12,197 nt of DNA. Origin: Promethearchaeota archaeon (lineage in GTDB: Archaea > Asgardarchaeota > Lokiarchaeia > Sigyniarchaeales > SOKP01). The notes beneath the pieces are model-generated. The model was not told the DNA's origin and did no database searches. It saw only the letters and a program-made list of their open reading frames with translations. Positions 96 to 12,197 of the stretch are shown piece after piece. Position 1 is the stretch's first letter. Each line of letters begins with the position of its first letter. The stretch lies in the NCBI GenBank assembly GCA_011364925.1, contig RDOA01000072.1, positions 1-12,197 of the forward strand. Direction: 5' to 3'. A program made the translations under genes and the position numbers.

Positions 96-1166
96 TTATA
101 GCAGTAACTCCCAATTTATTTGGTTCTCCATTAGATCAAGAACTTCTTGAATTTCGTCTTCTTGTATCCCCGGTTTTAAGCGCTCTAAATTTCTTATTGT
201 AGTATACGTGTCTGATGGGCTTAAAATAATTGGAATCTTCTTTTCGTTAGCTATGTGGACAACTTTTTGGTCCGGTTGAATAAATCCCGTTAAAATTAAT
301 ACAGAGACATCCTCATTCAATGCTGCTAATGCAAGGTCTGTTCTATCTCCCCCTGTGATTACAGCAGCTTTTTTTACTTGCCTTAGGTATTTCAGTGCTG
401 CCTGTGCGTTCATAGCTCCGATAATAATCGTTTCTACTGTATTATTTAACCCCATTGAAGCTAAATCGTTAATTAGTTCACCTCCGATAGCTTCTAATAC
501 TTCCGATACTCGAGGTGAAAATAATTTAATGCTTCTTTCAATTATCCCTAATACTGGAATGTTATATCGATCGATATGGTTTTTTTGAAGCTCTTGAATT
601 CTAGGAATATATTCGAAATCAATATTATTAAAGATAATGGCCGATAGATTAACATCTCGAAATTCGAAGTAGTTTTTAGTAAAAAATATGTCGTCAATAC
701 ACTTATCAGAGGATTCAGAGCTAATGTATATCATATCCTTTATCCCTAGCGCTTTTGCAACACTCACATCATCAATACCAACTCTGATGAATTTTCTGAT
801 AGAAGGTGCTCCTTCAATTATGACATAATCAACATTTTGAGATACTTCTTGATATTTTGTCTTAATTTTATCGAGGTACTCAACTTTTTTGTCAGCATCA
901 ATTAAATCAATATAGTATGCTTCAGGAACGGAGATGGGACAAACGGACTCATATGGTCCCTTATCAAGATACACCGTTTTTAAAATAAAATCTATATCTT
1001 TATCTGATTTTTGACTAAATGCGCCTCTTGGACACCCAATTGGTTTAAAGTATGCAAATTTTTTACCTTCCTTTTTTAATTTCTGAATGAATCCAATAGA
1101 AAGAAAGCTTTTTCCCACTCGTTCTTTTAACGAGCACAAATACAATGCCTTTACCATTTTATTCAC
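96..1166 (-). CDS. Phosphotransacetylase N-terminal-like protein (BioD-like P-loop + DRTGG domain), without the Pta catalytic domain
   Basis: N-terminal RVGKS P-loop, YFKPIG, VIIEG and the DRTGG signature VITGGDRTDL...LILTG. It is 356 aa and lies immediately downstream of the ADP-forming acyl-CoA synthetase. Confidence 0.9.
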   Translation of the reverse strand: MNKMVKALYLCSLKERVGKSFLSIGFIQKLKKEGKKFAYFKPIGCPRGAFSQKSDKDIDFILKTVYLDKGPYESVCPISVPEAYYIDLIDADKKVEYLDKIKTKYQEVSQNVDYVIIEGAPSIRKFIRVGIDDVSVAKALGIKDMIYISSESSDKCIDDIFFTKNYFEFRDVNLSAIIFNNIDFEYIPRIQELQKNHIDRYNIPVLGIIERSIKLFSPRVSEVLEAIGGELINDLASMGLNNTVETIIIGAMNAQAALKYLRQVKKAAVITGGDRTDLALAALNEDVSVLILTGFIQPDQKVVHIANEKKIPIILSPSDTYTTIRNLERLKPGIQEDEIQEVLDLMENQINWELLL

Positions 1167-1210
1167 TTTATTACTCTTTTTTATTTATAATTATTACTGG
1201 AATTATTATA

Positions 1211-3379
1211 TTATCTTGATATTGTGATCTTTATATCTACTGCGCTATATCCCTTTACAAATGATAGAAGCGGATTGATATCTAATTCGACAATCTCGGG
1301 AAAATCGTTTACTAACTGAGAAAGTCTTAACAATACATCGATAATCGCGTCAATGTCTGACGCAGGTTCGCCTCTTACACCTTGTAGAAGACTGTGTATT
1401 TTCGTGTTTTGGATAAGTTTCTTCGCGCTCTCTTTAGAGAATTGATACGATAAAGCAAATGAAACATCTTTCATAAAGTTCGCGTAAATCCCTCCTGTTC
1501 CGAACATGATTAATGGTCCAAATTGTGGATCTTTAGACATGCCCATAATAATTTCGTTTACCTTCGGTTCCTTCTTAAAGTCGATCATTTGTTGAACTTC
1601 TACACCATAGATTCGAGCGTTCTGAGGTCCAAACTTTTTTGCATTGTTTACGATCTGTACGTATGCTTCAAACGCGTCTCGCTCCGATTCGATATTTAGA
1701 ATTATACCCCCAACGTCTGTTTTATGAATTATTTGAGGGCTTACGATCTTTAATACAGATTTCCCTACTTCATTCTGTAATTCAGCTGCTTGGGCTGGCG
1801 TTCTTGCTAATTTAGATTTGGGCGAATGGATGCCATAGTTTTCGAAAATTTCGCTCGTTTCATAACTGAGCAGCACAGTTCTTCCCTCATTTCGTACGTT
1901 ATCGAATATTTCCTTAACTCTTTCTTTTTTAACAGAAAACTTTGGAATTTCAGTCTCCTCGTATGGTTCTCTACTTGAAAATTCGTTGATTTTAACCATT
2001 GCTTTAAGAGTTTGAGCTGCTCGTTCGGGAAATCGATAGCAAGGAATCCGGTTTTGTTGTAAATACTTGGTTGCTTCAACCATAGAAACCCCACCAACTA
2101 ATGCACACACGATTGGTTTATCTGATAAAGACTCTGACGATATTCTATAAATTAATTTAGCGACATCGTTTGGCCGAGTTTGAGCTTGCGGGCTCATGAT
2201 TATAAGGGCTCCGTAAGTAGTTATGTCATCTTCCTCAATAATTTCGGAATGCTCATCGTTGTTTAACCCAAAAATAGTTTTTATGGTAAACTCGTATCTA
2301 TCAGGCGAAGCATCCCCAACGATATCGATAGGATTAAATATTGCTGCCTCTGCTGGTAAGTTTTTACGAAGCAAGTGGAGTATGGGTTCTGAGAACTGAG
2401 CAAATTTGAGGCCTTCTCGCTCAAACGCATCGGTACTTACGATACCAGGCCCTCCCGCGTTGGTAATAATCGCAAATGAATTTCTTTTTGGTACTGGTTG
2501 AAATAATAAGATTTCTCCAAAATCAAATAAATCTGCTATTGAACAAGCTCTTAAAACTCCACATTTTTCAAACGCTAAATCGTAAGCTATATCAGAACCA
2601 GCTAAAGCGCCCGTGTGACTTGACGCTGCTCTAGCTCCTGCTTCGCTAACTCCCGATTTCAGGATTATTATTGGCTTTTTTCGAGATACTCTGGAGACTA
2701 CTTCCAAAAATTTTTTGCCGTCCTCAATACTTTCTAAATAACACAATATAACTTTAGTATTTGAATCATGGGCTAGGTGTTCAATAAAGTCAACCTCATC
2801 CATGTCAGCTTTATTACCTAAGCTAATATTGCACGAAAATCCAAAAGCTTGATCCATCGAGTAGTCCATCATTGCCGTTAACATTGCCCCAGATTGAGAT
2901 ATCATCGCGATTTCTCCTTCTTTTGGCGTGTTTGCGGCAAAAGAACCGTTGTAGTTGATCCCTATGAACCCAAGACAATTTGGTCCTATAATCCTCATGT
3001 TATGCTTCTTAGCAATTTCAATCAATTCTAGTTCGCGTTTTACACCTTCTCCACCGATCTCTTTAAAGCCAGCGGTAATAACAACTAACCCTTTTATTCT
3101 TTTTTTACCACATTCTTCTGCAATTTGATTAACTAATTTTGCGGGGACGACAAATATCGCGATATCAATTTCCTCTGGAACATCTAACACGCTCTTGTAA
3201 GCTTTGATACCTAGTATCTCATTCGCTTTAGGATTAATAGGAAATAATTTTCCAGAATATTTCGACTCAATAATATTTTTTAAGACATTATATCCCACTT
3301 TGCCCGGAGTTCCGCTCGCTCCAACGACTGCAATGCTTTCTGGGTTAAAGAAGAAAGAGAGATCGCTATGTTTTACCAT
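1211..3379 (-). CDS. acdA: Acetate/acyl-CoA ligase (ADP-forming), fused alpha-beta
   Basis: CoA-binding FFNPESIAVVGAS, IIGPNCLG, SQSGA, SLGNKAD, phospho-His motif ASSHTGALAG and TNAGGPG. C-terminal ATP-grasp with IIHKTDVGG, DPQFGP and ELDINPL. Confidence 0.93.
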   Translation of the reverse strand: MVKHSDLSFFFNPESIAVVGASGTPGKVGYNVLKNIIESKYSGKLFPINPKANEILGIKAYKSVLDVPEEIDIAIFVVPAKLVNQIAEECGKKRIKGLVVITAGFKEIGGEGVKRELELIEIAKKHNMRIIGPNCLGFIGINYNGSFAANTPKEGEIAMISQSGAMLTAMMDYSMDQAFGFSCNISLGNKADMDEVDFIEHLAHDSNTKVILCYLESIEDGKKFLEVVSRVSRKKPIIILKSGVSEAGARAASSHTGALAGSDIAYDLAFEKCGVLRACSIADLFDFGEILLFQPVPKRNSFAIITNAGGPGIVSTDAFEREGLKFAQFSEPILHLLRKNLPAEAAIFNPIDIVGDASPDRYEFTIKTIFGLNNDEHSEIIEEDDITTYGALIIMSPQAQTRPNDVAKLIYRISSESLSDKPIVCALVGGVSMVEATKYLQQNRIPCYRFPERAAQTLKAMVKINEFSSREPYEETEIPKFSVKKERVKEIFDNVRNEGRTVLLSYETSEIFENYGIHSPKSKLARTPAQAAELQNEVGKSVLKIVSPQIIHKTDVGGIILNIESERDAFEAYVQIVNNAKKFGPQNARIYGVEVQQMIDFKKEPKVNEIIMGMSKDPQFGPLIMFGTGGIYANFMKDVSFALSYQFSKESAKKLIQNTKIHSLLQGVRGEPASDIDAIIDVLLRLSQLVNDFPEIVELDINPLLSFVKGYSAVDIKITISR

Positions 3380-3501
3380 CTTTAATTTGACGCAAGATGA
3401 ATTTAACTTAAGTTCTTACAGACTTTTATTACCATTAGCTTAAAAGTTTTTATATTTTGGAACAAAAATAGAATCTTTAATTAAACTGAATGATATTATT
3501 G

Positions 3502-3519
3502 AAAAAACCGAGGTTTTTT
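3502..3519. promoter_or_regulatory. Inverted repeat in the divergent acd/cyclophilin promoter region
   Basis: AAAAAACC-GA-GGTTTTTT, flanked by AATGAT (3489-3494) and ATCATT (3521-3526). Confidence 0.35.
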
Positions 3520-3544
3520 TATCATTACGCATTAGATCACTATT

Positions 3545-4021
3545 ATGACAATAGTAAAAATGATAACTACTAAGGGAGATATTAACCTCCAACTATTCGA
3601 TAATGAGGCTCCACTAACGGTTTCGAGCTTTTTGTTTTTAATTAAAGAGGGATTTTACAATGGATTGACTTTCCATCGCGTCATAGCCGATTTTATGATT
3701 CAAGGTGGCGATCCACTAGGAAATGGTACAGGAGGTCCACGATCAGTTGGTATAAACTCGTTTCCATTTCAAGGACGACAAGTGTCGTACCCATACGCAG
3801 ATGAGTTTCAATCTGGAAAAGTGTTTAATAAATCAGGAATTTTAGCAATGGCAAACGCCGGAGCAGGTACGAATGGTTCGCAATTTTTCATAACACACGT
3901 ACCCACTCCACACTTGAATAATAGGCATACAATATTCGGAGAAGTCGTAAGTCGCGCCGATCAAACTGTAGTGGACGCGATACGACAAGGAGATAAGATA
4001 AAGGCTATTGAAATTATTTAA
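3545..4021 (+). CDS. Cyclophilin-type peptidyl-prolyl cis-trans isomerase
   Basis: FYNGLTFHRVIADFMIQGGDP, LAMANAG, TNGSQFFIT and HLNNRHTIFGEV. Confidence 0.97.
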   Translation: MTIVKMITTKGDINLQLFDNEAPLTVSSFLFLIKEGFYNGLTFHRVIADFMIQGGDPLGNGTGGPRSVGINSFPFQGRQVSYPYADEFQSGKVFNKSGILAMANAGAGTNGSQFFITHVPTPHLNNRHTIFGEVVSRADQTVVDAIRQGDKIKAIEII

Positions 4022-4052
4022 ATTAGTTGGTTATAATCAGACACTGATAAAA

Positions 4053-4068
4053 TTTTTCCTTTTTTTTT
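4053..4068 (+). terminator. Oligo-T terminator after the cyclophilin
   Basis: TTTTTCCTTTTTTTTT about 30-45 nt after the stop codon. Confidence 0.45.
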
Positions 4069-4102
4069 ATCTTTACATTTGAGTTAGTGTAGATTTATAT
4101 TA

Positions 4103-4249
4103 TTAATCTTCATCGTCGTCCCATTCGCCGTCGTTATAGTCGTCCCAATCTTCGTCCTCTTCATTATCGAAGTCATCATCATAATCGTCGTCATCGTCGT
4201 CGAAATCTTCTCTAGCTTCATATAAATCGTGTAATTTTATATCTTCCAT
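4103..4249 (-). CDS. 48-aa hyper-acidic microprotein, not in the ORF track
   Basis: Manual translation gives MEDIKLHDLYEAREDFDDDDDDYDDDFDNEEDEDWDDYNDGEWDDDED, ending in tandem TAA TAA. AAGGAG lies 9 nt upstream of the ATG. GAT/GAC codons are mixed rather than a pure triplet run. Confidence 0.75.
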   Translation of the reverse strand: MEDIKLHDLYEAREDFDDDDDDYDDDFDNEEDEDWDDYNDGEWDDDED

Positions 4250-4419
4250 AATAATCAACTCCTTGTTAGATCATTTAAGAAATTATATTTAACCTTTTTT
4301 AATCAAAGTATATTATTTGAATTACAAATCTTGAATGTTTTTTAAAGATTACGATCAAAAGATTTATTAGCTACTGCCTTTATTAATAATTCAAAATAGA
4401 ACTTTAGGTTGCTTTCAAA

Positions 4420-5874
4420 ATGAGTAAAGAATTAAAGGATTTAATAGATTCCATTGATTCGGCGAATAAGGCGCACTCTGACTTAGAAACGATGATTAAG
4501 TTTTTAAAGGAGGAAGTTCAGCGTCTTACTTTTACTGTTGATGAACAAAAGAAAATTATTCAAAACCAAAAATCACAGATTTCTAACTACACTATTCCTG
4601 AAGATATTGCTGTTTTAAAAGATTTAGTAGCAGATCAACGTCAAGATTTAATTAAAAAGGATAAAGACATCGAAATCCTTCAGCAAACTATCGCTGATAT
4701 CTCTACGGAATTGGAAAACGCTCAAAGTTTCGAAGAGGAAAGCGAAGAACTCATTTACGCCAATAAAGAAATTGTCCACCTCACTGAAGAAAATGAATCG
4801 TATAAGAAACAAGTTGAGGATTTACGCAACGCAATAAAGGAACTTCAGGAAGCAAAAGAAGCTACAGTAACTTCAATCGACGAAGAAAGTTCCGAATTAG
4901 TAGACGCCAAAAAATTAATAATTAAATTGACGGAGGAAAACAGTATCGACCGAGTTCAAATAGAAGCTTCAAAGCACGAAATCGAGGAGTTACAAAAAAG
5001 ACAGCAAGAAAGTGAAGAGTTAAAAAACCAATATTTACAAGAACTTAACGAGATAAATAAAATTGTAGATCAGTTGACATTTGACAACGATCAATATCAT
5101 GAAAAAGTTAATTATCTTCAGCGAAAATTAGAAGAAACCGTAAGTTTGCAAGAAGAGCAATTTAAAGAAATTGGAGCAGGTTCTGACTATGAAGAAAATA
5201 ACCAGAAGTTATTTAATCTCGAAGTTGAAAATAATGAGTTAAAGGATATCATAAAAACAAATATTAACATTATAGAAAACCTAAAACAACGGACTCAAGA
5301 CCTTGAAAATGAATTAGAAGGGATAGTTAAAAGTGAAGACCAGAAAATAGAAGCGCTTCGAAAAAAAACTTTAGAAAAAGACGAGGAGTTGAGCAATTTG
5401 AACCTTAAACTGCAAAAAGTCGAGGCGGCTAATGAACAACTAAGCGATTTAATTGTAGAACTAAAGATTATAGAGGATTCTATAGAAGACCACATCCAGA
5501 TTAAACCTATTCCTAAGCAAACCATATTTGAACCCTATCCACCTACATTATTCTTTAAAATGTATAAGTTGCTCTCTGAAGATTACAAAAATTTAATCGT
5601 AAACCAATTGATCGACGATTTAAAAAGCAATAATAGAGATTCTAGAACATACGCGATCAAAATTTTAAGCGCGATCAAAGGAGAAAAAATATTTAATGAA
5701 TTGAAAGAACTGGTTAATGACGACGATTGGATCGTTAAACTTTACTTAATAAGAGCATTGCGCAATTTTGAATATTCCGAATCGGCCGAAATTTTAAAGA
5801 AACTTCGAGAGGATAAAGATCCTGATGTTCGAGAAGCAGCTGTCGGGATGCTTTCGAAGTTAAATATCCAATAA
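4420..5874 (+). CDS. Long acidic coiled-coil protein with C-terminal HEAT (PBS-lyase-like) repeats
   Basis: About 350 aa of E/K/Q/L heptads, a Pro-rich linker (KPIPK...PYPP), then HEAT motifs SRTYAIKILS, DDDWIVKLYLIRAL and DKDPDVREAAVGML. Confidence 0.85.
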   Translation: MSKELKDLIDSIDSANKAHSDLETMIKFLKEEVQRLTFTVDEQKKIIQNQKSQISNYTIPEDIAVLKDLVADQRQDLIKKDKDIEILQQTIADISTELENAQSFEEESEELIYANKEIVHLTEENESYKKQVEDLRNAIKELQEAKEATVTSIDEESSELVDAKKLIIKLTEENSIDRVQIEASKHEIEELQKRQQESEELKNQYLQELNEINKIVDQLTFDNDQYHEKVNYLQRKLEETVSLQEEQFKEIGAGSDYEENNQKLFNLEVENNELKDIIKTNINIIENLKQRTQDLENELEGIVKSEDQKIEALRKKTLEKDEELSNLNLKLQKVEAANEQLSDLIVELKIIEDSIEDHIQIKPIPKQTIFEPYPPTLFFKMYKLLSEDYKNLIVNQLIDDLKSNNRDSRTYAIKILSAIKGEKIFNELKELVNDDDWIVKLYLIRALRNFEYSESAEILKKLREDKDPDVREAAVGMLSKLNIQ

Positions 5875-5997
5875 TCCTGCTCTATTAACAAGTTAATATT
5901 ATTTTTAAAAAAATGTTATATATCTACTTAAACGAAACAATAATTAAGGATAAGGTATAAGTGTACTTTCTATCTGATCTAAATTATTTTTGTGTGA

Positions 5998-6267
5998 TTG
6001 AGTAGCGTGGTAAGGGAACTAACTCCTAATAGATGGAATTGGTCTCAAAAAGATAATATGTGGGTCTTTATTGAGTGTAAAGCTGACGGTGATTTAACTT
6101 ATTACTATCAAATGGATCCTCCCGAAGAATTTAATGAATTAACCTATAAAATCAAGATTTTAAACGATAAATTAATGGCGTGCACTGATCCTAACGAAAA
6201 CGCAAAAATTTTTCGGCAGATGATAAAGATATCCAAAAGACTGCAGTGTATGGATCGAATTTGCTAA
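5998..6267 (+). CDS. Hypothetical protein (89 aa)
   Basis: TTG-start ORF filling the intergenic gap, with protein-like composition. No family recognised and the start is uncertain. Confidence 0.65.
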   Translation: MSSVVRELTPNRWNWSQKDNMWVFIECKADGDLTYYYQMDPPEEFNELTYKIKILNDKLMACTDPNENAKIFRQMIKISKRLQCMDRIC

Positions 6268-6439
6268 TGATATTGCTCCTATAATCTCTTTTTCTGAAAT
6301 AATATATTATTAATAAATTAACGAATTTCTTATCAATGATAATCAATTCTTTTCTATCATTTACAGATAGAAATCTCAAGATTTTATATCCATTATTGAA
6401 TAATTTTCATAATAGCATAGTAATTAAAGGGAATGGTTA

Positions 6440-7243
6440 ATGAAGATAGCGATTTCTGGCAAAGGCGGGGTTGGCAAGACATTGATTGCTGGCACTATAG
6501 CTCGACTATTCGCTAAGGATGGTTTTAAGGTATTAGCGATTGATAATGATTCAGCTATGAACTTGAGTTATACTCTTGGCATTGAAGAAGAAGTTAAATC
6601 AAAGATCGTTCCAATTTCAGAAATGAAGAATCTGATTCAGGAACGCACGGTTGTTGAAGGAGCTGGGCCTGGGGTTTACAATATTAATCCTGAAGTGTCT
6701 GATATTCCCGATAGATTCAAAGTCACAGGTCCAGATGGTCTACAACTATTAGTTTTAGGAGGCATAGAAGAGCCTGCTACAGGGTGTTTATGCCCCGAAA
6801 ATGCGTTGATAAGAACTTTACTCTATAATCTTTTTGTGAAACGAGATGAGGTTATTGTCGTAGATTTTGAGGCAGGATTAGAACATTTGGGACGCGGAAC
6901 TGCTAAAGGAATAGATGTAATGCTAGTAGTAACTGAACCATCGCAAAAATCTTTAGATCTCTGCTCGAAGATAATTGAACTGTCAAAGAAACTAGGAATA
7001 ATCAACATTTATCTTATCGCTAACAAAATAATGGATGAATCGCAATTAGATGCGATCAACGATCGGATTAAAACTTGGAAAGTTCCGTTGTATCACTCTA
7101 TCCCTTTCGATCTTGAAATTGGTAAAGCAGACTTAAATGGCATATCTCCTCTGGATTTTAATTCTAATTCAAAAGCTTTAAACTCAATTAAAGGGCTTTT
7201 TGAGAAGTTAAAGCAACTTAAATTAGAGTTGTTTGATCTATAA
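6440..7243 (+). CDS. cooC: CooC-type nickel-insertion ATPase (CODH/ACS maturation, MinD/SIMIBI class)
   Basis: KIAISGKGGVGKT deviant Walker A, Ni-binding GCLCPE CxC motif, DFEAGLEHLGRGT and ANKI. Confidence 0.92.
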   Translation: MKIAISGKGGVGKTLIAGTIARLFAKDGFKVLAIDNDSAMNLSYTLGIEEEVKSKIVPISEMKNLIQERTVVEGAGPGVYNINPEVSDIPDRFKVTGPDGLQLLVLGGIEEPATGCLCPENALIRTLLYNLFVKRDEVIVVDFEAGLEHLGRGTAKGIDVMLVVTEPSQKSLDLCSKIIELSKKLGIINIYLIANKIMDESQLDAINDRIKTWKVPLYHSIPFDLEIGKADLNGISPLDFNSNSKALNSIKGLFEKLKQLKLELFDL

Positions 7244-7395
7244 ATTGCGATTTAGTTATTCTTTTATTCTTATTCCTTAAGGTTAAGACAATATATATAG
7301 ACTATATATCTAAACAATATATAAGCTATTTTTCTTTCTAGGATTGGAGAAATCCACAAATTATGGAAATTACTAAAAGGAGGGATGATATCAAG

Positions 7396-7581
7396 ATGGT
7401 GAAGAAAAAAGAGAATTTACTAGTCTTAGGAATGATAAGCTTGATTATAGCGTTTATCTTTAATATGTTCGGTACTGCGAACTTAGTTCTTGATGTCGTT
7501 ATCTTAGTCTTTATTGCTATTGCTATATTCTCTAACGCAAGTTACTTAGTTCTATCATCTACTAAAAATAAGAAAAAGTAG
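7396..7581 (+). CDS. Small two-TM membrane protein
   Basis: Two hydrophobic segments with Lys-rich ends. ATG 7396 is preferred over 7363 because AGGAGG precedes it. Confidence 0.65.
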   Translation: MVKKKENLLVLGMISLIIAFIFNMFGTANLVLDVVILVFIAIAIFSNASYLVLSSTKNKKK

Positions 7582-7604
7582 TTTTTTTTCTTTAAACAAA
7601 AATC

Positions 7605-7847
7605 CTATAGCATATCAGATAAATCTAAACTCTGGTCATCCGCAACTTCTTTCCACTGTTCAATGGCTTCTAATGCGTCTTTCTCCTCCATTTGCTCAAT
7701 CGCGTAACCAGCATGGACAATAACGTACTTTCCTATTTCTGGTTTTAGAATTAAAGCAACGATAACTTCCTGTTGTATTCCATCAAAATCAACTAAAGCA
7801 GTATTTCCATTGATCTTTACGATTTTACCGGGAATTGCGAGACACAT
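7605..7847 (-). CDS. hypC: [NiFe]-hydrogenase maturation chaperone HypC/HupF
   Basis: MCLAIPGKI N-terminus and YVIVHAGYAI motif. Confidence 0.96.
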   Translation of the reverse strand: MCLAIPGKIVKINGNTALVDFDGIQQEVIVALILKPEIGKYVIVHAGYAIEQMEEKDALEAIEQWKEVADDQSLDLSDML

Positions 7848-8618: not shown

Positions 8619-9401
8619 TTAAATCTTTCCACTGTATTGCTTCAGTAAGTCATCTAACCACTTAAATATCTCTTCCTTCGACAAATTTCCAATATTAAAT
8701 TTCAATCGTTCAATTTCTTTTAAAAGATCTATCAATTCTAAAGGAATAGACCTTTGAACCAGCTCAAATAACATCTCGTTTGTTTTCGAAATTAAAATTT
8801 TGACCTTGGATGCTAAAGGTTCTATATGGGGCATATCTTCCAAGCGAACAAGAATGTTAATAAGACTAAACAAGAATTCGGTTTTATTTCCTTTAAAGCT
8901 ACTGTCAAATTGATAATAATATCGATCGAAATATTCCCTCGGCACTACTTCCTCGTATCTATTAGCTATTTTAATAACTGATTTTATGTTTTTAAAGAGT
9001 AATGATGGTGTCCAGTTAAAAAGTTGAAAGTTAGACTCAATCTTTCCACTATGAATCACGGGTATAAACTTATGATCCTCTTTAAAATAACCAAAAGGTA
9101 GAATAATAAAATCTAACGAATCTGAAGATTTATAATCGTTCACATCAATGTAGAGATTCTTTAGAGTGTGGACAAGCTCTGTTCGATGATCGAGAATGTC
9201 GAATTCTATTCTATTCAAAGACGGCCTGTAGATATAAAACAAAAGCCCGTCAAATCCTTGTATTTCTAAATCAAGCGTAAAATTAAACATATCAACTGTC
9301 GCATTTTCAGTTTTAAATCTCATATCTAGCACAATATGAGAATAATTCTCGATATAAGGAAAGAACCAAGGGGGGTTCCTCTCCGCTTCGAACGATATCA
9401 T
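8619..9401 (-). CDS. Hypothetical soluble protein (260 aa)
   Basis: Long ORF with an AGGAG RBS upstream. No family recognised. Confidence 0.75.
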   Translation of the reverse strand: MISFEAERNPPWFFPYIENYSHIVLDMRFKTENATVDMFNFTLDLEIQGFDGLLFYIYRPSLNRIEFDILDHRTELVHTLKNLYIDVNDYKSSDSLDFIILPFGYFKEDHKFIPVIHSGKIESNFQLFNWTPSLLFKNIKSVIKIANRYEEVVPREYFDRYYYQFDSSFKGNKTEFLFSLINILVRLEDMPHIEPLASKVKILISKTNEMLFELVQRSIPLELIDLLKEIERLKFNIGNLSKEEIFKWLDDLLKQYSGKI

Positions 9402-9606
9402 CTAATCTCTACTCCTATTATCTCTTTTTAAGATGATTTATATATATTTTATACCTATTTATACTTCTTCACTCGAAGAAATATTTTGCACATAAATAAT
9501 TACCTTCCATATTTTTAATTTTTCCGATTTGAATTGCAATAATACTCAATGAGAAAAAGAAAAGGATAACTATACTCCTTAAAAATCTCTCCTAAAGAGA
9601 GCTCTC

Positions 9607-9662
9607 TCCAAGTAGCTAATTCTTATTCAAGCTAATAATCTTTGATTAATTTACTTTTAGCA
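9607..9662. repeat. 56-bp perfect direct repeat, copy 1
   Basis: TCCAAGTAGCTAATTCTTATTCAAGCTAATAATCTTTGATTAATTTACTTTTAGCA is identical to 10090-10145 (offset 483 bp). Confidence 0.95.
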
Positions 9663-10057
9663 GCGTAAACATCCTCTTTTGTTATTGAAAGAATATCCAT
9701 TATCGCAAATGTTCTTTGATTAAGCGATACGAACATTCCAGGCTTCAACTGCTCGTTTAGCACTTTCCGAGAAGAATTTACAACAAATATTGGTCCCGTC
9801 GAAGACAGGACTGTAATTTTCCCTGTGTTCTCTTTTACGCTTAAAACCACTGCCGCAACTAAAGGAGGTTCTCTCAATCTATCGATTTCGTTTCTTAAGC
9901 TATTCAGTTCCTGTTCTAAACGTAATCGTTCAGCATCAAACAATTGCTTTTCAGCCTCTAAATTATGTAATTTCTGCTCTAAATGACGAATATCAGTGGT
10001 GAAATATTCCTCATCTTTAGTTTCTTCCTTTTTTTTCCTTTCCTCAGTCGTTGTCAT
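9632..10057 (-). CDS. Stand-alone PAN/Rpt N-domain protein (coiled coil + OB fold, no AAA+), paralog B
   Basis: LRNEIDRLREPPLVAAVV, VLSSTGPIFVVN and LKPGMFVSLNQRTFAIMDIL match the PAN pattern E..RL..PPL.VG, KSSTGP.FVV and LKPG.RVALNQ.TLAIV.VL. The gene stops before any Walker A. Confidence 0.88.
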   Translation of the reverse strand: MTTTEERKKKEETKDEEYFTTDIRHLEQKLHNLEAEKQLFDAERLRLEQELNSLRNEIDRLREPPLVAAVVLSVKENTGKITVLSSTGPIFVVNSSRKVLNEQLKPGMFVSLNQRTFAIMDILSITKEDVYAAKSKLIKDY

Positions 10058-10089
10058 TACCTTCTGATAGTGTTTTATTTATATTCAAT

Positions 10090-10145
10090 TCCAAGTAGCT
10101 AATTCTTATTCAAGCTAATAATCTTTGATTAATTTACTTTTAGCA
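10090..10145. repeat. 56-bp perfect direct repeat, copy 2
   Basis: Identical to 9607-9662. Confidence 0.95.
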
Positions 10146-10543
10146 AAGTAAATTTCTTCGTTTGTTATTGAAAGAATGTCCATTATCGCAAATGTTCTTT
10201 GATTAAGGGAAACAAACATTCCTGGCTCTAAATCTAGATTTTTAATTTTGCGGGATGTACTAACTGTATACAATGGTCCATTGGAGAGTAGTACGGTTGC
10301 CTTTTCTTTGTCTTCACTAACACTGACGATAACTGCCGTAAGTAAAGGAGGCCCCCTCGTCCTATCAATTTCGTTTCGCAAACTACTGAGTTCCTGCTCT
10401 AATCTTAAACGCTCTGCATCTAAAAGTTGTTTCTCCGTTTCAAGATTTCTTAATCTTTTTTCTAAATGTCTCGTATATGTGATTAGATATTCTTCATCTT
10501 TCGAAGTTTCTTCCTTTTTTCTCCTGTTCTTAGTCTTTGTCAT
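10115..10543 (-). CDS. Stand-alone PAN/Rpt N-domain protein (coiled coil + OB fold, no AAA+), paralog A
   Basis: RHLEKRLRNLETEKQLLDAERLRLEQEL coiled coil, RGPPLLTAVI, SNGPLYTV and LEPGMFVSLNQRTFAIMDIL. Confidence 0.88.
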   Translation of the reverse strand: MTKTKNRRKKEETSKDEEYLITYTRHLEKRLRNLETEKQLLDAERLRLEQELSSLRNEIDRTRGPPLLTAVIVSVSEDKEKATVLLSNGPLYTVSTSRKIKNLDLEPGMFVSLNQRTFAIMDILSITNEEIYFAKSKLIKDY

Positions 10544-10829: not shown

Positions 10830-11513
10830 TTGGATCCGTTAAACCTACTAAAAATTGTCACAACAATTACTACAGCAATTATCGCACTTATAATAGGATT
10901 ACGCATACTCTCTTTAAACAGAAGAGACTTATTGAACGTATGGTTTACTTTATATTTTATGACTTCATCTTTAGGATTCATTTTTTATGCAGTCTACCAT
11001 CTAATTTTTAACAATGCAAATATTATCATTCCACTCATGATTACAGCTCAAATATTATTTAACCTTAATTCCATATCCCTCATCATGACTGTGTTCGCGT
11101 TAGAAAAGTATTCTCAGATTGCAATGAGCGTTAAATATTTTGGAACAATGACAGTTGTATTCTTTGTGATGACCATTGGATATTTCCTATTTCCTCCGTA
11201 TCTCGATATGGGTGATTACGCTCTGGATATCGTTAATACTCATACTCCTCCCGGGTTGTTTATTTTTGTAAACGCCATTCGATTACTTTTAGCTGTATAT
11301 GCCGTACTTAGATATATTATAATAACCAAGAAACTTGAAGGTAAAACTAAAAAAAAAGTAAAATGGTTTATTTTGGGAGTCTTGGTGCTAATTATGGGGC
11401 TTTTCACCAATTTGCTAGGTGGTTTACTTTCATTGATAGTAGTGGAAGTTGTAGCTCTAATAATTGTCGATATCGGGGCTATTCTTGTTCTTAAAGGATT
11501 TTTGATCAAATAG
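10830..11513 (+). CDS. About 7-TM membrane protein, similar in layout to 7TM sensor regions of histidine kinases
   Basis: Seven hydrophobic segments and a basic loop (KKLEGKTKKK) before TM6. GGAGG precedes the TTG start. Confidence 0.8.
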   Translation: MDPLNLLKIVTTITTAIIALIIGLRILSLNRRDLLNVWFTLYFMTSSLGFIFYAVYHLIFNNANIIIPLMITAQILFNLNSISLIMTVFALEKYSQIAMSVKYFGTMTVVFFVMTIGYFLFPPYLDMGDYALDIVNTHTPPGLFIFVNAIRLLLAVYAVLRYIIITKKLEGKTKKKVKWFILGVLVLIMGLFTNLLGGLLSLIVVEVVALIIVDIGAILVLKGFLIK

Positions 11514-11520
11514 CTCGTTG

Positions 11521-11862
11521 TTACTTCCTGTAAACTCCATAATTTTTACAGGTGTCAATCATAGCTTTTACATTTTCTAGTTTAGCGTCATCTGGAAGCT
11601 CACAGCCTACCCATAATCCTCCACCATCAGCGCACTTGTCAATTATCTCCTTAGTTCTCTTCTCAATCATATGCGGAGTACCTAGCGTAAAATCTGATGG
11701 TTTAAAATTTCCTTCAATTAGCATGCGATCGCCAAGGATTTCTTTTGCTTTTACGATGTCTGTTCGCTCGTCCATATGAAGATAAATCTTACCCTTTGGT
11801 AGTTCCGCAAGGTAATGCAACCTTGAAGTCCAATCTGTATCAAAATGTAATTGAACAATATA
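11521..11862 (-). pseudogene. C-terminal fragment of a uroporphyrinogen decarboxylase / MtaA-CmuA methyltransferase family protein
   Basis: TDIVKAKEILGDRMLIEGNF and GGGLWVGCELPDDAKLENVKAMI. The frame extends upstream as YIVQLHFDTDWTSR, then hits TAA at 11893-11895 with no ATG. The fragment is much shorter than a full TIM barrel. Confidence 0.75.
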
Positions 11863-12197
11863 AGTATCGTATAATAAGGAAAGATGGAGAAATTAGATGG
11901 CTTGAAAATTTTTCAAAAACAATTAAGTATAAAAGAAGACCAGCCGACTTCATAGTGTCAATAGACATTACAGAACAAATGAATGCGGAACAAAAGTTAA
12001 AAAATTCAGAACAACAGTACCGTTCAACAATTGATTCAATACGAGATCCAATTCATGTTATTGATAAAGATTTAAGAATTATTCTTATTAATAATTCAAT
12101 TAGAAAATGGCTTGAGATTTTAGATATTAAAGATGATATAATAGGTAAGAAATTAAATGATGTATTTACATTTTTGCCTAAGAAAGTCATTGATGAA
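11853..12197 (+). CDS. PAS/PAC-domain signalling protein fragment (5'-truncated, runs off the window)
   Basis: Manual translation gives EQYKYRIIRKDGEIRWLENFSKTIKYKRRPADFIVSIDITEQMNAEQKLKNSEQQYRSTIDSIRDPIHVIDKDLRIILINN..., i.e. a PAC motif, a DIT linker and the start of the next PAS domain. Confidence 0.8.

Follow-up and report, generated by a model that had tools for sequence, protein, structure and literature searches.

PAN N-domains without a motor

The window considered here is the whole of a 12.2-kb contig (RDOA01000072.1, 12,197 nucleotides; C85) from the 3.9-Mb genome of a Promethearchaeota archaeon (G000). On its minus strand, 57 bp apart, lie two intact open reading frames (ORFs), genes A and B, which are confirmed to encode the coiled coil and OB fold of PAN, the proteasomal ATPase found in archaea, without its AAA+ part. 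An earlier note, made from the letters of this DNA alone, had read the same two frames of 141 and 142 amino acids as a coiled coil, a PPL linker and an OB fold, and that description holds. The features of the two genes are as follows.

10115-10543, minus: gene B, the upstream copy, a 142-aa ATPase-less PAN N-domain protein (ORF, profile, PDB and model matches)
10352-10486, minus: coiled coil of B, residues 20-64, matching host PAN1 at 42 of 45 residues (model, alignment)
10169-10351, minus: Pro-Pro junction and OB fold of B, residues 65-125, with the family-specific hydrophobic residues V71, L85, L91 and F110
10118-10168, minus: C-terminal amphipathic helix of B in place of the PAN linker, without an HbYX motif (model, alignment)
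9632-10057, minus: gene A, the downstream copy, 141 aa (intact ORF)
9686-9868, minus: Pro-Pro junction and OB fold of A

Both proteins match PF16450, the proteasomal ATPase OB family, above its curated cut-off (E 1.4e-6 and 4e-5), and both align to the PAN model TIGR01242 over only positions 1-98 of 362, where their 85 and 70 bits fall short of the 500-bit cut-off and the AAA+ module required by the model is absent. In the PDB, the closest sequences belong to PAN and to its N-domain (6HE5, E 9e-20; 2WG5; 3H43). The AlphaFold2 model of B (mean predicted local distance difference test score, pLDDT, 83.9) comprises a helix at 2-63, five strands at 67-124 and a helix at 128-138, and with this model Foldseek ranks PAN N-domain structures first, such that the OB-fold check proposed in the earlier note returned the PAN N-domain by profile and by structure alike. 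The AAA part of host PAN1 has no match in the window at E<=1; neither a split gene nor an AAA remnant was found downstream of A and B, in agreement with what the note had reported. A and B are 70% identical overall, with 47 of 63 residues shared in the N-terminus and coiled coil, 27 of 48 in the OB core and 26 of 30 at the end; the OB cores have indeed diverged, to a moderate degree and not as strongly as had been stated. The coiled coil of A retains 36 of 45 PAN1 residues, and the synonymous sites of gene A are saturated against both B and pan1. The proline at the foot of the helix, P66, is invariant across 63 aligned rows, and an HbYX motif is lacking from A and B, both of which terminate in K-D-Y.

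A full-length pan, whose presence elsewhere in the genome the note had wished to see verified, does exist: canonical PAN1 is encoded at C101:56485-57696 (L001:1471-2682), has 403 aa and ends in M-Y-T. The genome also encodes a divergent full-length PAN2 (C38:169335-170546; L002) with a degenerate coiled coil and neither a Pro-Pro junction nor HbYX, as well as five 20S subunit genes. PAN2-type paralogues are widespread in the genomes of this taxonomic family, and the start codon of pan1 is TTG. The coiled coil of PAN1 is unusually invariant, being 97% conserved across the taxonomic family and still close across the order, which suggests that it has a binding partner.

Descent, selection and gene conversion

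A search for homologues recovered about 60 complete proteins of 132-190 aa that end after the same new helix and not in the PAN linker; those with names belong to Promethearchaeota, that is, to Lokiarchaeia among the Asgard archaea. In a tree of the OB columns, 57 short proteins fall on one side of a branch from PAN1 and PAN2 (99/96), and when PANs of other families are added 62 do so (SH-aLRT 98); these trees rest on 61 columns, and as such their deep branching and root are unsure. Approximately unbiased (AU) tests reject joining A and B with host PAN1 (p 0.004) and, on the OB tree, joining A with B (p 0.02). A recent tandem duplication is thus rejected as the origin of the pair, and A and B are older paralogues with homogenised 3' ends. 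The median ratio of nonsynonymous to synonymous rates (dN/dS) is 0.22 over 68 unsaturated pairs (23 genes with DNA) and 0.28 in the OB fold and tail, far from the value near 1 that the note had named as damaging; judged by these ratios, the protein family is evidently under purifying selection. AAA-less orthologues in related genomes, which the note had also looked to, were found: P0001, 91% identical, is the orthologue of B in the same synteny, and the tandem recurs in the same neighbourhood on four European Nucleotide Archive contigs and in GCA_029856205.1. Misassembly or a collapsed repeat can be set aside, given that an unbroken exact match between B and pan1 extends over 49 nt at most and that the tandem is present in independent assemblies with the same synteny; nor is the pair a freshly broken or misassembled pan pseudogene, in light of the AU result, the dN/dS and those assemblies. 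That these are genuine stand-alone genes under selection is to this extent borne out, and the roles proposed in the note, of holdase, substrate adaptor or dominant-negative subunit, are still candidates.

Tandem pairs occur in about 7 of some 20 loci, and P0103 (L228:887-1678; 263 aa), known from a single contig, carries two N-domains of the short family in one chain. In second copies the coiled coil has undergone deletions of 7 and 14 residues, lengths that keep its register. Databases label such proteins hypothetical, 'proteasome regulatory subunit' or 'fragment', and the matching cluster in the ESM Atlas, with 171 members, is named merely as an OB-domain 'fragment'. In the literature searched, outside which most subscription papers lie so that absence is unproven, no account was found of a PAN/Rpt N-domain family that occurs naturally as separate proteins; as far as that literature goes, the motor-less family would be previously undescribed. 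The short frames in G084:C384 and G012:C110 were excluded as contig-end fragments of pan, and P0098 and P0101, in which the 5' end of pan is joined to an epimerase or amidase on contigs of about 1 kb, were treated as probable chimeras.

Relative to PAN1, the short proteins have changed in one part and stayed the same in another. OB positions 71, 85, 91 and 110 are polar in 30 of 30 PAN1 proteins (T71, K85, S91, R110), and a hydrophobic residue stands there in 81-100% of 57 short proteins and in 0% of those 30; the new tail helix bears a hydrophobic stripe at 127/132/135/139/140, and it is this amphipathic pattern, not the exact letters found in A and B, that is kept in the family. First copies are 92-100% identical to PAN1 in the coiled coil and 50-72% in the OB fold, as compared with 97% and 93%, respectively, when PAN1 proteins are set against one another; in second copies the coiled-coil identity drops to 32-84%. 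Copies recovered with OB-only queries show the same kept coil and drifted OB fold, and therefore the pattern is not due to search bias alone. Furthermore, the outer heptad positions b/c/f of the short proteins resemble PAN1 about as closely as the core positions do (0.85-0.90 vs 0.87-0.91), in contrast to PAN2, where b/c/f stand at 0.22-0.42 vs 0.86 for d.

Part of this likeness was refreshed from the host genome. The tracts concerned are listed here.

10385-10543, minus: conversion tract from host pan1 in B, 9 differences in 159 nt (codon comparison)
10090-10183, minus: 3' tract homogenised between B and A, including 25 nt past the stop codon (B copy)
9607-9700, minus: the same homogenised 3' tract (A copy)

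Where B and pan1 share a residue, the codon is unchanged at 45 of 49 sites within the tract and at 16 of 40 beyond it (p 1.5e-7), and codons 19-53 of B differ from host pan1 at 6 positions but from the pan1 of nine relatives at 17-26. By this codon evidence, the 5' end of B was recopied from host pan1 by gene conversion, and an orthologue in an independent assembly that shares extra pan1 variants absent from B suggests repeated events. Conversion is not the only force, since in G088 the coil is identical to host PAN1 at 38 of 38 residues with codon identity at background, a pattern that points to selection. At the other end, A and B agree at 92.6% of their last ~94 nt, a stretch that takes in 25 nt of 3' flank and contains an exact run of 56 nt, and the synonymous sites of the two genes are saturated outside this tract (Fisher p 4e-6); near-identity amid saturation argues for recent conversion between A and B. 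The identical tails to which the note had drawn attention are thus real, although as products of conversion they do not count as independent conservation. The shared 25-nt flank was also considered as a cassette or attachment site, and this was dropped, since the rest of the genome yielded just weak short matches and not one copy of full length.

The family is accessory and patchy. Intact genes occur in 5 of 161 genomes of the class (G000, G080, G088, G097 and G101), all five among the 135 of the same taxonomic family, with decayed copies in G148, where a stop interrupts the gene, and in G098, where a remnant is left; in draft genomes, loci of this kind may be under-counted. In five relatives from the genus the site is empty, the flanking genes lying ~270 bp apart. 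Among 239 further Asgard genomes no tail-covering match was present among the matches listed (best 150), two double-match genomes having been left out. No copy of the short genes was found on the viral contigs searched, and a viral origin was rejected on that ground. Other lineages of Lokiarchaeia have PAN N-domains without the ATPase that apparently arose separately (L114/L240, at G158:C450:9781-10110; P0107; P0109; P0071), and these truncations lack the hydrophobic OB changes. In genus g12 (L067-L070, L241) the gene occupies a different site, also conserved, with a GNAT gene on one side and an N6-methyltransferase/specificity fusion of ~693 aa on the other.

What the short proteins may do

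The existence of the family and the selection upon it are well supported, and its function we infer from sequence and from analogy with better-known systems. The N-domain of PAN itself (subcomplex I; PDB 3H43, 2WG5, 6HE8; TIGR01242/PRK03992) has the coiled coil, Pro-Pro junction and OB fold in common with A and B, whose family descends from Lokiarchaeia PAN1; subcomplex I is a proteolytic fragment, whereas A and B are natural separate genes, devoid of AAA+ and HbYX, that differ from it by the new C-terminal helix and the four OB positions turned hydrophobic. PMC6006169 describes the isolated coiled coil and OB fold (CC-OB) of PAN as a hexamer, and reports that the coiled coils of PAN keep proteins from aggregating without hydrolysing ATP and are implicated in binding substrates. 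A comparable gene layout, a separate N-domain gene without ATPase beside a full-length enzyme, is met in mycobacterial ClpC2. This protein, a partial paralogue of an AAA+ unfoldase that is essential, lacks the ATPase and, like A and B, keeps the ligand-binding N-domain; it is described as a sponge, competitor and proposed holdase (PMC10030653). ClpC2 differs in having the Clp repeat fold, to which A and B, with their CC-OB, have no Pfam match, and in being a self-repressor as well. A and B are not homologous to ClpC2 or to the chloroplast ClpT proteins, and the likeness would be one of principle. ClpT1 and ClpT2 are, like A and B, stand-alone derivatives of an AAA+ N-domain; they bind the ClpPR core and have an unrelated fold.

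Our tentative preference, held at somewhat less than an even chance, is that A and B form an accessory, motor-less N-ring that competes for the ligands of PAN as a decoy or holdase. If the biochemistry of PAN is a guide, the proteins would dimerise by way of the coiled coil, and three dimers would complete a ring, as in isolated CC-OB. Judging from the sequence, the new helix may pack on the four hydrophobic OB positions and cap the face from which the ATPase linker was lost, which would make the ring self-contained. Such a ring would display the coiled-coil surface of PAN1 and could bind whatever docks there, be it unfolded proteins, adaptors or hostile binders, holding them without unfolding them or feeding the 20S core, so that the load on PAN would be buffered as ClpC2 does for ClpC1. 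Having neither motor nor HbYX, A and B are incapable of unfolding substrates and would hardly open the 20S; self-assembly is favoured by the diverged and presumably capped OB fold, and a shared ligand by the conserved outer face of the coil. The recurrent tandems, the fused P0103 and the register-keeping deletions we count in favour of a competitor ring. Several observations weigh against it. The near-identical coiled coil is equally compatible with direct pairing with PAN1; conversion copies every heptad position and can therefore mimic selection on the outer face; both copies in G101 and G097 have degenerate coiled coils (32-68%), such that mimicry of PAN is not needed everywhere; and most relatives do without the genes.

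The main rival, which we consider rather unlikely, is that A and B are direct partners of PAN1, entering mixed coiled coils or N-rings as motor-less dominant-negative subunits or tethers, with the coils grafted elsewhere serving as docking tags. In full-length PAN just one of the three coiled coils is fully zipped (PMC6006169), and the short proteins have a coiled coil that is near-identical to that of PAN1 and recopied from host pan1, while the same helix is grafted, under selection, onto unrelated domains. An ESMFold2 model of three PAN1 N-domains with three B chains gives a weak pass, at a score of 0.51 against 0.00 for the best control, with runs agreeing in >=87% of contacts and a partner pLDDT of >=72. 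The mark was reached by 51 of 78 solved and 2 of 108 mismatched pairs, and passes at <=0.60 took in just 5 of the 78 solved pairs and every one of the 4 passing mismatches; the resemblance to PAN N-rings of solved structure can account for this result. The OB fold, which builds the ring contacts, has however drifted to 50-72% and been resurfaced, lineages with degenerate coiled coils retain the genes, and the short genes adjoin pan in 0 of ~20 loci. In any case, a competitor ring and direct pairing with PAN1 are not mutually exclusive. The eukaryotic Rpt1-6 N-ring (PMC5476697) offers a homologous fold, in paralogues that could pair and that alternate as cis/trans pairs, yet Rpts keep their motors, and the second proline is present in 63 of 63 aligned short proteins, which speaks against any Rpt-like cis/trans specialisation of A and B.

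It is doubtful that the copies are bait in a conflict, absorbing a viral or competitor protein that targets the coiled coil of PAN1 while conversion keeps them up to date. Their patchy distribution with empty sites, duplication, decay and location at variable sites would fit such a role; one locus stands beside an N6-methyltransferase and others near LRR, TPR, AAA_15 or HNH genes, and toxin and phage sponging has been proposed for ClpC2 (PMC10030653). Yet no PADLOC defence model matches the genes, the viral contigs searched hold no copy, the neighbours of A and B are housekeeping-like, and the coiled coil bears no sign of diversifying selection. That the genes are function-less leftovers of a pan duplication, kept recognisable by gene conversion, is largely refuted and very improbable: they are rare in genomes, broken in G148 and G098, under weaker constraint than pan1 and, in B, oddly changed at the junction of coil and OB, but a median dN/dS of 0.22 (still 0.28 in the OB fold and tail, outside the pan1 tract), a single branch of ~60 full-length members sharing the new helix, and the rejection of descent from host pan1 all contradict decay. 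Last, an ATP-independent 20S cap docking by its new C-terminal helix, after the manner of PA26, Bpa/PafE or PbaB (small, motor-less, possibly ring-forming activators with folds different from A and B, which lack HbYX), is highly improbable, for although the six C-termini would lie on the side opposite the coiled coils, a terminal Tyr is frequent in the main subfamily (28 short proteins counted) and 20S genes are present, a penultimate Tyr occurs in just 1 of ~60 proteins and the ends differ in sequence and by up to ~40 residues in length.

The choice of substrates by PAN without ubiquitin receptors, and the ligands of its coiled coils, are open questions (PMC6006169). A motor-less N-ring with a coil matched to host PAN could be a ready probe of this selection, the proteins being of 16 kDa, easy to express and available in naturally occurring forms with and without the match. 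Their importance is limited in that they are accessory, confined to one Lokiarchaeia family and off the line leading to the eukaryotic Rpts.

The PAN1 coiled coil elsewhere, and the surroundings of the pair

The coiled coil of PAN1 is also found on other proteins. Rab-like GTPases carry it at the N- or C-terminus in G056, G094, G095 and G117, and in L122 and P0034 a GTPase is fused to an entire short protein. The Rab/Ras-like carriers lie at L083:271-1281, L085:1465-2454, L099:162-1145, L101:1489-2367 and L122:464-1501. For three GTPases compared with host pan1 over the coiled coil, synonymous differences (pS 0.5-0.7) far exceed nonsynonymous ones (pN 0.08-0.12), and hence this segment is conserved at the protein level. 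An ATPase-less protein of CDC48_N and CDC48_2, to which a coiled coil derived from PAN1 and, at the C-terminus, a zinc ribbon are joined, occurs in G141, G143 and G000, with full-length matches in just 3 of 161 genomes of the class; its single chain thus combines pieces of the two ATPases linked to the proteasome.

G000:C18:402-1463, plus; also L089:3-1061 and L090:1243-2319: CDC48_N, coiled coil and zinc ribbon protein

TPR and other proteins bear the coil as well. It is conceivable, if on balance improbable, that the ~45-residue coiled coil is a portable docking tag in this Lokiarchaeia family that recruits regulators or substrates to PAN1. N-rings, Rab-like GTPases, Cdc48-N and other carriers would then zip onto the open helices of PAN1, with gene conversion keeping tag and target matched, and the arrangement would be an archaeal parallel to the Rpt coiled coils that act as docking arms in the 26S proteasome. 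In these relatives of the eukaryote ancestor, the proteasomal ATPase is seen split into reusable modules, joined to Rab-like GTPases and Cdc48-N.

In P0088, P0090, P0092 and P0097 the PAN coiled coil is followed by an unannotated domain of ~100 aa without a Pfam match. At L229:2073-3948 a Ras-family gene overlaps that of P0215, which begins with a PAN coiled coil; both hold, by eye, a profilin-like stretch, and the two are possibly a frameshifted fusion. L116 (G012:C31:28912-29262) is a PAN-like ATPase of 652 aa with a long charged N-terminal extension.

The remaining features around the pair in the window are these.

9587-9612, minus: hairpin after A, possibly the end of a two-gene transcript (consensus match alone)
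8619-9401, minus: conserved 260-aa hypothetical gene flanking the pair, which marks the insertion site and is not an AAA remnant
10830-11513, plus: gene for a 227-aa membrane protein flanking the pair, ~270 bp from the 260-aa gene in relatives without the pair

Farther off, 96-7847 holds ordinary neighbours, namely phosphotransacetylase-like and ADP-forming acetyl-CoA synthetase genes (by eye), a cyclophilin, a protein with a coiled coil and HEAT repeats, a CooC/MinD-like ATPase and HypC. At 11521-12197 the contig breaks off within an ORF that is PAS-like by eye and that is overlapped by a C-terminal fragment (99 aa) of a gene resembling uroporphyrinogen decarboxylase; this end has the look of a rearranged or broken junction.
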